A program made the translations under genes and the position numbers. 64,000 bases of DNA from Candidatus Heimdallarchaeum endolithica (GTDB lineage Archaea > Asgardarchaeota > Heimdallarchaeia > Heimdallarchaeales > Heimdallarchaeaceae), in contig CP084167.1 in NCBI GenBank assembly GCA_021513715.1, forward strand, positions 832,001-896,000. Direction: 5' to 3'. Below the pieces are notes generated by a model that made no database searches, had not been told where the DNA came from, and saw nothing but the letters and a program-made list of their open reading frames with translations. Below are positions 63,387 through 64,000 of this stretch, piece by piece (positions within the stretch are counted from its first letter, which is position 1; each line of letters opens with the position of its first letter).

Positions 63387-63620
63387 CTATGAGATAATAC
63401 GAATATAAGCTTTAAACCCTAGATAGTTTAAAGAGCGGACAACTTTATTTCTATTAATTATTGTTGGATTTAGTTTAACTTTTACATTTTTTGCTTGAAA
63501 ATCTACCGTGCTGTCTGTAATTCCTTCTAAATATTTCAAAGTTGTTGCAATTGTCTTTGCACAATTTTTACAGTGGATATCTGGAACAGCTATCGTTAAT
63601 TCTTCTTCAAATTCAGTCAT
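63387..63620 (-). CDS. Heavy-metal-associated (HMA, CopZ-like) protein
   Basis: DIHCKNC metal-binding motif with a ferredoxin-like pattern. Confidence 0.88.
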   Translation of the reverse strand: MTEFEEELTIAVPDIHCKNCAKTIATTLKYLEGITDSTVDFQAKNVKVKLNPTIINRNKVVRSLNYLGFKAYIRIIS

Positions 63621-63815
63621 TTAATCATCTCAAGATAACATATTTTTAAACCCTTTTTAAAGTTGGGATGGTACTATATTGTAAAAGGAAAGATATAAAA
63701 TCTGACTGTTATTTTATACATTTGTAATCTACTTTAATTAACCACAAGGGTGAATTAGACTAAACGTTTAACAATTAAGAAACATTTTTCACTTAGAAAG
63801 TGGAGAGCTGTAAAA

Positions 63816-64000
63816 TTGCAATATTATATTCCTGAATGGGATGATCTAGTTAGTTCGAAGTATGACTACTGGAATGATGTTGAGTTACCTAACTCAAAAA
63901 AGGTTTACGCACATGAGATATACCCTAAACCAAATTATGATGGAATTTTAGTATCAAGAATGAAAATAGAAGAGAGTAAATCAAAAATTGAAAAGATAAA
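63816..64000 (+). CDS. dpdA: DpdA-like tRNA-guanine transglycosylase homolog, 5' fragment (runs off the window)
   Basis: TTG start after GGAGAG; open to the window end: (M)QYYIPEWDDLVSSKYDYWNDVELPNSKKVYAHEIYPKPNYDGILVSRMKIEESKSKIEKI. This matches my recollection of the DpdA N-terminal pattern FP(D/E)..D....YD...D...YAHE....YDG.LVS. Confidence 0.65.
   Translation, partial: MQYYIPEWDDLVSSKYDYWNDVELPNSKKVYAHEIYPKPNYDGILVSRMKIEESKSKIEKI

Follow-up and report, generated by a model that had tools for sequence, protein, structure and literature searches.

A DpdA-family gene and its DUF6884 partner in a Heimdall archaeon: a candidate clamp-tethered, DpdB-independent module for 7-deazaguanine DNA modification

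Both viruses and the dpd islands of bacteria are known to modify DNA with 7-deazaguanine bases. The window that we analysed is a stretch of 64,000 nucleotides from Candidatus Heimdallarchaeum endolithica (genome G000, contig C1, positions 832001-896000), and it ends inside a reading frame that a first-pass annotation, made from the sequence alone, had taken for the start of a DpdA gene and of a dpd-type defence island. This raises the question of whether an Asgard archaeon carries such an island or whether the gene belongs to a different kind of system. The features that bear on this question are listed below. Positions within the window are given as such; beyond its end they are given for locus L002, whose coordinates are the window position minus 63000.

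63387-63620, minus strand: HMA-domain-like ORF, the other flank of the intergenic region that precedes dpdA
63621-63815, plus strand: AT-rich intergenic stretch of 195 bp that precedes dpdA; a GGAG is found 10-14 nt ahead of the TTG
63816-64000, plus strand: first 61 codons of dpdA, the in-window part only; the full gene encodes 433 aa and runs to genome position 897117
Genome 895816-897117 (L002:816-2117), plus strand: whole dpdA, 433 aa
L002:2073-2096, plus strand: codons of a PIP box, residues 420-427 (QTKIENFF), on the disordered tail 406-433, beyond the window end
L002:2114-2941: alpha/beta-hydrolase gene, overlapping the dpdA stop codon by 4 nt; genus-specific, of doubtful membership in the module
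L002:4890-6074, minus strand: DUF6884/DpdC-like partner gene, 394 aa, beyond the window end

The frame that opens at TTG 63816 is still open at 64000, after 61 codons, and its continuation in the genome brings the protein to 433 aa. That it crosses the window edge would account for its absence from the ORF list of the first-pass annotation. The TTG is the first start codon past an in-frame stop, and residue 1 of the protein falls on the first position of the DpdA profile. The four motifs by which DpdA had been recognised (YIPEWDD, YDYWND, VYAHEIY and NYDGILVS) are all present in the ORF. They correspond to columns that are invariant or nearly so in 30 Asgard DpdAs (I5, P6, W8, D9, D10, H33, D42, G43, L45 and S47), and they align with the N-terminus of Salmonella DpdA in the solved structure 7UI4, which the protein matches over residues 1-383 with approximately 40% identity (E = 2.8e-68). 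The NCBIfam equivalog model for DpdA, NF041059, gave 394.5 bits against a cut-off of 200 (E = 4.9e-118) over profile positions 1-405 of 406, and the PADLOC DpdA model gave 358 bits. By comparison, the models for tRNA TGTs scored far below their cut-offs (aTGT, 42.7 bits vs 350; bTGT, 31.3 vs 307). Thus, the comparison of DpdA with aTGT and bTGT models that the first-pass annotation had proposed favours DpdA clearly, and neither of the outcomes that it had named as fatal, a frame closing shortly after 64000 or a full-length protein belonging to the tRNA TGTs or an unrelated family, was found.

The active site is that of a DpdA. Residues D79, D114 and D233 align to Asp95, Asp130 and Asp256 of 7UI4, and the structural zinc site CxCxxC...H is intact (C343, C345, C348 and H370); none of these aspartates and zinc ligands varies among the 28 Asgard and 25 fused sequences aligned. 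Asp256 and Asp95 are the catalytic nucleophile and general acid/base, and Asp130 is a base-binding residue. Both Asp95 and Asp256 have been shown to be essential in Salmonella DpdA (PMC10164549). In Salmonella numbering, the Heimdall DpdA has a Gln at the position of His181 and a Phe at that of Leu236. The Gln was considered as a sign of another specificity and dropped, as it is the majority state of the family, viral DpdAs included, and His is the enterobacterial exception. The AF2 model of the protein has a mean pLDDT of 90.5. Judged by its sequence, the ORF is a genuine and complete DpdA, and we infer that it replaces guanine in DNA with a 7-deazaguanine base.

Does a dpd island begin with this gene? 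The first-pass annotation had supposed so, but no dpd set was found in the 20 kb downstream, and an island continuing past the window edge can be ruled out on the same grounds. This region encodes an alpha/beta hydrolase, a TPR protein, a rubredoxin-like ORF, the DUF6884 protein, a phosphoesterase, an ORF without a family match, a small GTPase and others; the DUF6884 gene, which is DpdC-like, is the only one with a likeness to a dpd component. The nine neighbours scanned, all within approximately 9.5 kb, had no Pfam helicase or nuclease domains, and PADLOC recognised no dpd component and no other named defence system among the scanned neighbours, although the phosphoesterase matches its candidate family PDC-S10. 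Searches of L002 by phmmer with DpdD, DpdF, DpdG, DpdH, DpdJ and DpdK of E. cloacae gave no matches. The expectation of dpdB and helicases nearby was likewise not borne out: the DpdB model (NF041060) had no match in G000, G001, G005, G040 or G043, whereas the E. cloacae plasmid control scored 477 bits; the broader Pfam DndB model found nothing in the four Heimdall genomes searched; and phmmer found no DpdB in the archaeal dpdA loci. The que genes that were also expected close by form a cluster approximately 970 kb away.

The surroundings of dpdA are instead those of a resident gene. Housekeeping genes flank it in three genera, the region is syntenic with G001, a sister genome named Ca. Heimdallarchaeum aukensis, and its GC and GC3 are native (z ~ -0.1). 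A recent horizontal acquisition or prophage origin is ruled out by this composition, by the synteny and by the fact that a single GenBank phage record matches the Heimdall DpdA, weakly (32% identity). We read the locus as a unit for modification alone that is embedded in housekeeping genes, and not as the border of a dpd restriction island.

The second component of this unit is the DUF6884 gene, the only one in G000, which lies 2.8 kb from dpdA. Its product scores 31.4 bits with DUF6884 (PF21818; gathering score 30) and keeps the two motifs described for this family (PMC11701544), CxxxK (C14-K18) and [LI]SAxxG (I80-SAGFG). Among 32 homologues of the partner, S12, C13 and K17 are nearly invariant and S81-G85 are invariant. 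A sequence search against PDB chains returned no match and Foldseek only a marginal one to YaaA, but in a wide structural search residues 5-227 matched the YaaA 'cantaloupe' fold (Z 9.7), the sole hit with Z >= 8. The helical C-terminal domain of 170 residues had no convincing match in the structural search. The first-pass annotation had pointed to dpdC as a gene to look for. A DpdC-like gene is near, but it is no DpdC equivalog, and the PADLOC DpdC models match it over residues 7-113 only, the N-terminal third (E = 5.9e-9). Conversely, canonical DpdC scores 34.8 bits on the DUF6884 profile that we built. The literature places DpdC in DUF328/YaaA, and the similarities show that the partner and DpdC are homologous at the superfamily level. 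To our knowledge, no activity has been assigned to any DUF6884 protein.

The arrangement of the two genes varies while their association persists. In G000 and G001 they are convergent with three unrelated genes between them, and co-transcription has therefore been lost, which counts against the proposed module. In G005, G040 and G043 a homologue of the partner shares the strand of dpdA and overlaps or adjoins it (in G043 it is assembled for its C-terminal part only, and the DUF6884 domain has no score). At four loci of the Thor/Loki clade, two of them named Thorarchaeota and Promethearchaeota, the partner is divergent at 36-123 bp or overlaps the dpdA start by 18 bp. DUF6884 is moreover fused to the N-terminus of DpdA in 60-odd bacterial proteins, and to its C-terminus in a Haloferax plasmid protein. 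What is conserved is thus the pairing of DpdA with a DUF6884 protein of YaaA fold and DpdC-like character. In the literature that we searched, nothing was found on Asgard DpdA or on DUF6884-DpdA fusions.

The tail of DpdA provides a hint as to how such a unit could find its substrate. It is disordered in the AF2 model (pLDDT < 50), and the C-terminus conforms to the pattern Qxx[ILM]xx[FY][FY], which in PIP-box clients lies on a disordered and usually C-terminal segment. The string Qxx[ILM]xx[FY][FYLW] occurs within the last 20 residues of 15 of the 2,576 ORFs of G000, DpdA among them. Eight of the 14 others are classic PCNA clients (XPD, NreA, RNase HII, a Y-family polymerase, RFC-L, UDG, FEN1 and Hel308), and the remaining six are not recognised as such; PIP-like strings can arise by chance, which counts against reading the tail as a PCNA-docking peptide. 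Among unfused homologues, 21 of 49 have the strict PIP motif within their final 15 residues (shuffle mean 1.15, maximum 5). The shorter form [ILMV]xx[FYW] is found in the last 14 residues of 42 of the 47 Asgard-clade DpdAs, and the remaining five carry Qxx-L-xx-[LI], so that a motif of PIP type closes all 47. Approximately 17 Heimdall-clade sequences lack the Gln (one such tail ends in ...NLLDFL), and five of the 47 tails, of the Thor/Loki type, lack an aromatic residue. The Asgard-clade tails are 26 to 77 residues long and show no conservation outside the C-terminal motif. The 68 bacterial fusions contained no PIP motif, but 16 of them, all within one clade (support 100), carry the beta-clamp motif QLxLF (shuffle mean 0.32, maximum 3). 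A PCNA gene is present in G000, near 1.972 Mb. Docking of the DpdA tail on PCNA is thus a prediction from these patterns, and the motif suggests that marking of the DNA may be coupled to replication.

The host appears equipped to feed such an enzyme. G000 has a preQ0 cluster of MptA/FolE2 (270 bits), QueD, a QueE-like radical-SAM enzyme and QueC. Its canonical aTGT (TgtA) is a separate gene at 2137569-2139299 (454 bits vs a cut-off of 350), and an ArcS-like gene is also present. The first-pass annotation had called a dpd-type locus notable in an Asgard archaeon, and the assignment of the host is sound: the sister genome is Ca. H. aukensis and homologues are named Heimdallarchaeaceae. Since PGAP already labels homologues in related MAGs 'DpdA', finding one in an Asgard archaeon is by itself no novelty. 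The G000 protein belongs to an Asgard-specific clade that spans Heimdall, Thor and Loki genomes, and 18 of 301 Asgard genomes have a DpdA. Such patchiness is as expected of an accessory or defence-type gene and counts against the module that we propose.

Based on these results, we consider it probable that the locus encodes a DpdB-independent, clamp-tethered module for 7-deazaguanine DNA modification that is fed by the host preQ0 genes. We propose that the double-stranded DNA of the archaeon itself is the substrate, in which DpdA would replace guanine with preQ0 supplied by the MptA/FolE2-QueD-QueE-QueC cluster. The DUF6884 partner may turn dPreQ0 into dADG, as DpdC does, or it may present or flip the target base. 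The flexible C-terminal tail with its PIP box would dock DpdA on PCNA, and modification would be delivered where the clamp is loaded, at replication forks and repair patches. This tether may stand in for the DpdB ATPase in engaging DNA. DpdA requires both DpdB and ATP in the one cellular system that has been reconstituted (PMC10164549), and activity without DpdB is therefore an assumption for cellular enzymes, even though phage DpdAs do without it. A bolder form of the model, which we offer tentatively as possible but rather doubtful, is that the module places a restriction-independent 7-deazaguanine mark on the Asgard chromosome: a PCNA-tethered DpdA would write behind the fork, the YaaA-fold partner would process the mark, and the clamp would replace the DpdB ATPase. 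Such a system would be a prokaryotic counterpart of maintenance methylation by DNMT1 with PCNA, and the bacterial beta-clamp solution would have arisen independently.

In a modified form of the first-pass view, DpdA and the DUF6884 protein would mark the host DNA as self for a dpd-type restriction-modification defence, with the restriction genes unlinked to them. G000 has a region that could play this part:

G000 2.7437-2.7554 Mb: candidate unlinked restriction locus, with a UvrD-like helicase, a PD-(D/E)XK nuclease, TGT2 (the second TGT paralogue of G000), an N6/N4 DNA methylase and a 1,588-aa DpdJ-like helicase

In G000, the UvrD-like gene (E = 4.7e-55) and the PD-(D/E)XK gene (E = 6.2e-18) are the only matches to their counterparts in the Picosynechococcus island, and DpdJ finds its best match in the 1,588-aa helicase. 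TGT2-type genes of at least 211 bits occur in four of five DpdA-positive relatives compared with three of 56 DpdA-negative ones, all of them kin and not independent genomes. Among the bacterial loci that encode a related DpdA, mostly a fusion, 50 of 71 have helicase, nuclease, small-TGT or DpdD/F/H/J/K-like neighbours, and the patchy occurrence of DpdA across the phylum would also fit. However, searches of the other four genomes with a DpdA, one of them the closed chromosome of the sister species, did not find the UvrD-like and PD-(D/E)XK pair; being unique to G000 among the five, the pair weakens the candidacy of the TGT2 locus. TGT2 is present in DpdA-less genomes too, its G001 homologue is 41% identical and lies in another context, and nine Asgard DpdA loci had no restriction-type neighbours save one DpdF-like match. 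We therefore regard an unlinked restriction half as unlikely.

The variability of the tail invites a different objection, namely that the pair modifies DNA but that the C-terminal motif is another linear motif or a structural cap, with DNA found by DpdA alone or via the DUF6884 protein. The many Heimdall-clade tails without the canonical Gln, the five Thor/Loki-type tails without an aromatic residue and the six G000 motif bearers that are not known PCNA clients would agree with this. Yet the motif is kept at the extreme C-terminus in two deep Asgard clades while the linker drifts in length and sequence, the bacterial clamp motif takes the same place in one bacterial clade, and a disordered tail carries a motif class in which the replication and repair proteins of G000 are strongly over-represented; we find a motif of another kind quite unlikely. 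If PCNA docking is accepted, the enzyme could still serve repair or surveillance instead of writing preQ0: with a YaaA/YfjM-like partner that binds lesions, it would exchange or excise an aberrant purine, or it would use some base in place of preQ0. Most G000 proteins with a C-terminal PIP are repair enzymes, and no que gene is linked to the module. Additionally, YfjM (DUF6884) came up among the proteins that interact with abasic and RNA-base lesions, and YaaA is a stress protein that binds DNA (PMC11701544). Such a role seems very unlikely, as the residues for catalysis and base contact match those of DpdAs that insert preQ0 (most of the family has Gln in place of His181), the DpdA score is at equivalog level and the host makes preQ0. 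We know of no base-exchange repair by a TGT. Finally, the protein is a member of the TGT superfamily (Pfam TGT, 45.8 bits) and the PGAP GO label of DpdA reads 'tRNA modification', so that it might be an RNA-directed transglycosylase, exchanging guanine in tRNA or rRNA and misnamed DpdA. This is highly improbable: its tRNA TGT scores are far under the cut-offs, the canonical aTGT and an ArcS-like gene are elsewhere in G000, a Pfam scan found no C1, C2 or PUA RNA-binding domains in it, the partner has a DNA-binding fold, the clamp motif is present, and a phage DpdA fails to complement tgt (PMC6884629).

The locus points to a second, simpler architecture for 7-deazaguanine DNA modification, in which DpdA would act with a DpdC-like protein and without DpdB or linked restriction genes, and which is conserved in a distinct Asgard clade of Heimdall, Thor and Loki genomes. 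The clamp motif (PIP in archaea, QLxLF in one bacterial clade) is a testable answer to how DpdA reaches double-stranded DNA. The literature that we searched held no link between DpdA and PCNA or other clamps, and none between a sliding clamp and any base-exchange (transglycosylase) enzyme or prokaryotic DNA-modification writer. If the proposed module is correct, DpdA would be the first sliding-clamp-coupled base-exchange enzyme, and it would be the first hint that hypermodification of genomic DNA accompanies replication in the archaea closest to eukaryotes. This would matter for nanopore and PacBio data from Asgard archaea, for the cloning and restriction of Asgard DNA, and for thinking about the origin of replication-coupled epigenetic marking.

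Compared with the canonical Dpd system (dpdA-K of Salmonella Montevideo and Enterobacter), the Heimdall module shares the DpdA family with its Asp95, Asp130, Asp256 and zinc ligands, a YaaA-superfamily gene that in the canonical system lies directly upstream of dpdA (L049 15067-15918), as in most archaeal loci, and preQ0 made by host que genes. It differs in that it lacks DpdB (a ParB/DndB-like ATPase, essential in vitro), DpdD-K and the island. The Heimdall partner has only the N-terminal third in common with canonical DpdC and adds the helical C-terminal domain, and the Heimdall DpdA has a disordered tail of 50 residues with a PIP box, whereas the canonical enzyme stops approximately 20 residues past the RRRGFHN motif.

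The nearest relatives outside the archaea are the DUF6884-DpdA fusions of cyanobacteria, Chloroflexota, Bacillota and Myxococcota (43-47% identity), such as WP_062436786 on a plasmid of Picosynechococcus PCC 73109 and the protein of Microcoleus/Allocoleopsis PCC 7113, whose locus has been drawn as a dpd cluster (PMC5699537). They have the domain order of the Heimdall operon and the same Gln and Phe active-site variants, and they too are without DpdB. Unlike the Heimdall pair, which is unfused and outside any island, they are single polypeptides, usually in helicase/nuclease/small-TGT islands and often plasmid-borne, and they are without PIP, one clade having QLxLF instead. DpdAs of phages and archaeal viruses (9g, CAjan, HVTV-1 and others) put 7-deazaguanines into DNA without DpdB (PMC6884629). 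None of these viral enzymes lies within the Asgard clade; their genes are linked to que genes of the virus, and they have an anti-restriction role. Among IMG/VR matches we saw neither a DUF6884 partner nor a clamp motif, except on one contig of the bacterial QLxLF clade.

Other resemblances are more distant. The aTGT (TgtA), with ArcS, has the TIM-barrel superfamily, the preQ0 substrate and the zinc motif in common with DpdA, but it has C-terminal RNA-binding domains and is a separate gene in G000. E. coli YaaA (DUF328, PDB 5CAJ), B. subtilis YfjM (DUF6884) and DpdC belong with the partner to the YaaA superfamily, from which the partner stands apart by its extra C-terminal domain and its weak similarity to DpdC. 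The genus-specific alpha/beta hydrolase was not counted as a member of the module. Clamp-tethered enzymes include eukaryotic DNMT1 and archaeal UDG, FEN1 and RNase HII, all with PCNA, and in general a C-terminal or flexible PIP peptide brings DNA-acting enzymes to newly synthesised DNA. The UDG, FEN1 and RNase HII of G000 carry the same motif class as DpdA, a likeness that is one of analogy and not of homology.

The window covers G000:C1:832001-896000, and the open reading frame that begins with TTG at its position 63816 is a dpdA gene. The first-pass annotation had it crossing the window edge; in the genome, a single contig of 3.33 Mb, it is indeed open at 64000 and, rather than closing shortly afterwards, extends to 433 codons. 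This TTG is the earliest start codon to follow an in-frame stop, GGAG lies 10-14 nt 5' of it, and residue 1 of the protein pairs with position 1 of the DpdA profile.

Genes at the dpdA locus (L002 is the stretch around the window end)
Genome 895816-897117 (L002:816-2117), forward strand: dpdA
L002:2114-2941: alpha/beta hydrolase, overlapping the dpdA stop by 4 nt (ATGA)
Downstream: TPR protein
Downstream: rubredoxin-like ORF
Downstream, L002:4890-6074, reverse strand: DUF6884 protein
Downstream: two coiled-coil ORFs
Downstream: calcineurin-type phosphoesterase
Downstream: ORF with no family match
Downstream: one further ORF, outside the family scan
Downstream: small GTPase

The motifs by which the gene had been recognized are all there, and in an alignment of 30 Asgard homologues their columns are invariant or nearly so. 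HMM searches confirmed that the protein is DpdA and not an archaeal or bacterial TGT. It scored 394.5 bits on the NCBIfam DpdA equivalog NF041059 (curated cut-off 200; profile positions 1-405 of 406), compared with 42.7 bits on the archaeosine TGT model TIGR00432 (curated cut-off 350) and 31.3 bits on the bacterial TGT model TIGR00430 (curated cut-off 307). The PADLOC DpdA model, which has no curated cut-off, gave 358 bits. Salmonella DpdA (7UI4) aligned with residues 1-383 (E = 2.8e-68). In the Salmonella enzyme Asp95 and Asp256 are essential and Asp130 binds the base (PMC10164549); their counterparts here are D79, D233 and D114. These residues and the zinc ligands (C343, C345, C348 and H370) are invariant throughout the Asgard clade and bacterial relatives. 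The protein has Gln at the His181 position and Phe at the Leu236 position, as does most of the family, viral DpdAs included; His/Leu is the enterobacterial exception. The AF2 model was confident (mean pLDDT 90.5, pTM 0.87) save for residues 406-433. Assigning such proteins to DpdA is not new, as PGAP labels already exist; near homologues carry the name Heimdallarchaeaceae.

Of 61 close relatives, 5 have a DpdA that passes the cut-off, as do 18 of 301 sampled genomes of the phylum, across 12 of 70 genera; the genomes compared are kin, so counts across them are not independent. DpdA is thus patchy in the phylum, yet forms its own Asgard clade.

Related variants were also seen. Small TGT-like proteins (303-344 aa, Pfam TGT only) are encoded divergently beside dpdA in the Heimdall genome G005 (L030:6911-7876). 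Such proteins are also found inside cyanobacterial and haloarchaeal DpdA islands (L033:6159-7082; L034:14975-16009), and many Heimdall genomes that lack DpdA, many of them of genus g4, have them on their own. A divergent DpdA-like gene in another genus of the order (G041:C1, L032:7677-9071; 170 bits, below cut-off) is 27% identical to the protein studied here and has another gene context. Hadarchaeota and Aenigmatarchaeota MAGs (L114 and L126) encode DpdAs of 568 and 577 aa with a C-terminal extension of ~160 residues and just faint DUF6884 signals; the latter, from DPANN, carries QPTLERF close to its C-terminal end, and its gene lies near two small TGT genes.

The host can supply the precursor preQ0. 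MptA/FolE2 (270 bits), QueD, a QueE-like radical-SAM enzyme and QueC are clustered at 1.8686-1.8745 Mb. Because a canonical aTGT (454 bits, cut-off 350) and an ArcS-like gene are also present, tRNA archaeosine is already covered and DpdA is an extra paralogue. There is one PCNA gene. A second QueC copy (G000:C1:2722140-2722970) scored 171 bits on Pfam QueC, has ~35 extra residues at its N-terminus and stands alone amid membrane-protein genes; the sister genome, Candidatus Heimdallarchaeum aukensis PM71 (G001), showed one strong QueC match only.

The proposal that a dpd-type defence/modification locus starts here held in part only: no dpd island begins at this point. Among the PADLOC-scanned neighbours there was no dpd component except the DpdC-like DUF6884 match, and no other named defence system was matched; the sole defence-type exception was the phosphoesterase, of candidate family PDC-S10. 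Both flanks are syntenic with the sister genome, and GC and GC3 are genome-typical (z about -0.1). In G005 and G040, two other DpdA-positive Heimdall genomes, dpdA sits among genes for ABC transporters, ProRS, an M20 peptidase and PolD DP2. The anticipated dpdB was not found by profile search in the five DpdA-positive Heimdall genomes, although the same search gave 477 bits on an Enterobacter dpd plasmid, and a broader DndB model was negative in the four of these genomes searched. The ATGA overlap of the alpha/beta hydrolase, a gene seen only in the two Heimdallarchaeum genomes, suggests translational coupling with dpdA.

As for dpdC, the search turned up a relative rather than an equivalog: the genome's single DUF6884 gene.

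Arrangement of dpdA and DUF6884
Heimdallarchaeum (G000, under study, and G001): convergent at a distance of 2.8 kb, separated by three unrelated genes
Other Heimdall genera (G005, G040, G043): partner directly upstream of dpdA, same strand, overlapping or abutting (in G043 the assembly holds no more of the upstream gene than its C-terminal part, and no DUF6884 domain scored)
Thor/Loki clade (four loci, of which two carry the names Thorarchaeota and Promethearchaeota and two come from 'archaeon' MAGs): divergent partner in a short form of 238-276 aa, lying 36-123 bp from dpdA or sharing 18 bp with its start
Cyanobacteria, Chloroflexota, Bacillota, Myxococcota and others: fusion with N-terminal DUF6884, 670-720 aa
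Haloferax plasmid: fusion with C-terminal DUF6884, 964 aa

The two fusion orders, and an adjacency kept across domains, argue strongly that DpdA and the DUF6884 protein are functionally linked. The partner retains the DUF6884 signature motifs CxxxK and [LI]SAxxG and carries an extra helical C-terminal domain. Its structure model (mean pLDDT 90.5) had a sole match at Z >= 8, E. coli YaaA (5CAJ; Z 9.7, 182 residues, rmsd 4.8), and the literature places DpdC in the YaaA/DUF328 family. Since PADLOC DpdC models also match the N-terminal third of the partner, and canonical DpdC scored 34.8 bits on the DUF6884 profile built here, the partner is a DpdC relative at superfamily level.

The Haloferax alexandrinus fusion (plasmid pBNX82-4, L034:12001-14895) has insertions in DpdA and a PIP-like C-terminal QAALEQY; genes for a small TGT, a BREX-type ATPase and a QueD-like protein come after it. 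The locus is a haloarchaeal plasmid variant of the system.

The tail of DpdA contains QTKIENFF (residues 420-427), followed by six residues, and by sequence it reads as a canonical PIP box. The motif is specific, conserved and disordered. The pattern Qxx[ILM]xx[FY][FYLW] occurs within the last 20 residues of 15 of 2,576 ORFs in the genome, against an internal-window rate of 0.13%. Ten of the other 14 are annotated, and eight are XPD, NreA, RNase HII, a Y-family polymerase, the RFC large subunit, UDG, FEN1 and Hel308; thus, this motif class marks PCNA clients in this genome. Of 49 unfused homologues, most of them of Asgard type, 21 have a strict PIP in the last 15 residues; shuffling gave a mean of 1.15 and a maximum of 5. 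In the Asgard clade, with tail consensus KK[Q/G][T/K]xL[E/D][D/E]F[L/F]-COOH, [ILMV]xx[FYW] falls within the last 14 residues of 42 of 47 DpdAs, and the remaining five retain Qxx-L-xx-[LI]. The linker ahead of it ranges in length between 26 and 77 residues and shows no conservation; a varying linker with a kept end motif is what selection on a short linear motif leaves behind. In a tree built with a 'quick' method, the Thor/Loki (support 99) and Heimdall (100) clades join at 91, apart from all bacterial and viral sequences. As the PIP motif is present in both clades, it is probably ancestral to them.

None of the 68 bacterial fusions has a PIP. Instead, 16 of them, all within one clade (support 100), carry the beta-clamp-binding motif QLxLF (shuffle mean 0.32, max 3). 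Canonical DpdB-dependent DpdA lacks such a C-terminal tail. We found no paper on a DpdA-clamp link, and as far as the literature was searched both the domain-matched clamp-binding motifs and the DpdB-less two-gene architecture in Asgard archaea are new.

The QLxLF clade includes Myxococcota, Competibacter, Thiohalocapsa, others and one IMG/VR contig (P0050, P0051, P0053, P0060, P0067, P0086, P0089, P0091, P0092, P0097, P0102, P0110, P0111, P0119; loci L095, L097, L098, L130, L132), and the motif lies in a 40-47-residue tail ending in a conserved acidic ...DAL/DAV. Elsewhere in the Heimdallarchaeum genome, a 343-aa metallo-beta-lactamase-fold protein with C-terminal QKTLDFYL (G000:C1:1542309-1543340) and two small ORFs with C-terminal PIP-type motifs (1482623-1483186 and 146216-146623) are possible unrecognised PCNA clients.

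This genome holds an intact DpdA, a linked YaaA-fold partner, a preQ0 supply, a separate aTGT and PCNA; no DpdB was found, and no restriction genes are linked to dpdA. We propose that DpdA docks on PCNA and would swap G for preQ0 in DNA that has just been replicated or repaired, clamp tethering taking the place of DpdB. The partner may turn the nitrile into an amide (dADG), or may help base presentation. Such a mark might label the cell's own DNA for an unlinked nuclease, protect it against something else, or have an epigenetic role.

A restriction half might instead be encoded elsewhere, the candidate being a locus at G000:C1:2743659-2755415 (L050:3659-15412) that holds TGT2, a second paralogue of TGT, which is 387 aa long and reaches 99 bits on the aTGT model, short of the cut-off. 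TGT2 is flanked on one side by a UvrD-like helicase and a PD-(D/E)XK nuclease, the genome's only matches to the corresponding Picosynechococcus DpdA-island genes, and on the other by an N6/N4 DNA methylase, a 383-aa gene and a 1,588-aa DpdJ-like helicase (DEAD+MZB). TGT2-type genes occur in 4 of 5 DpdA-positive and 3 of 56 DpdA-negative relatives. We nevertheless consider this unlikely, because none of the other four DpdA-positive genomes, the closed sister chromosome included, yielded the helicase/nuclease pair, and TGT2 varies in context and is also present without DpdA.

The TGT2 locus resembles a defence island, with a TGT that may act on DNA at its core; the second QueC copy lies ~21-25 kb off. 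The TGT2-methylase pairing was found again in G005 and in a further relative, G056. The G005 homologues (L150:9689-12103) end in PIP-like QSKILQYL and QTKLISYV, and that of G056 (L152:9659-10804) in ...KINDYR; the G000 copy of TGT2 ends at QTTLIG, without the aromatic residues. This second TGT family may also be clamp-tethered.
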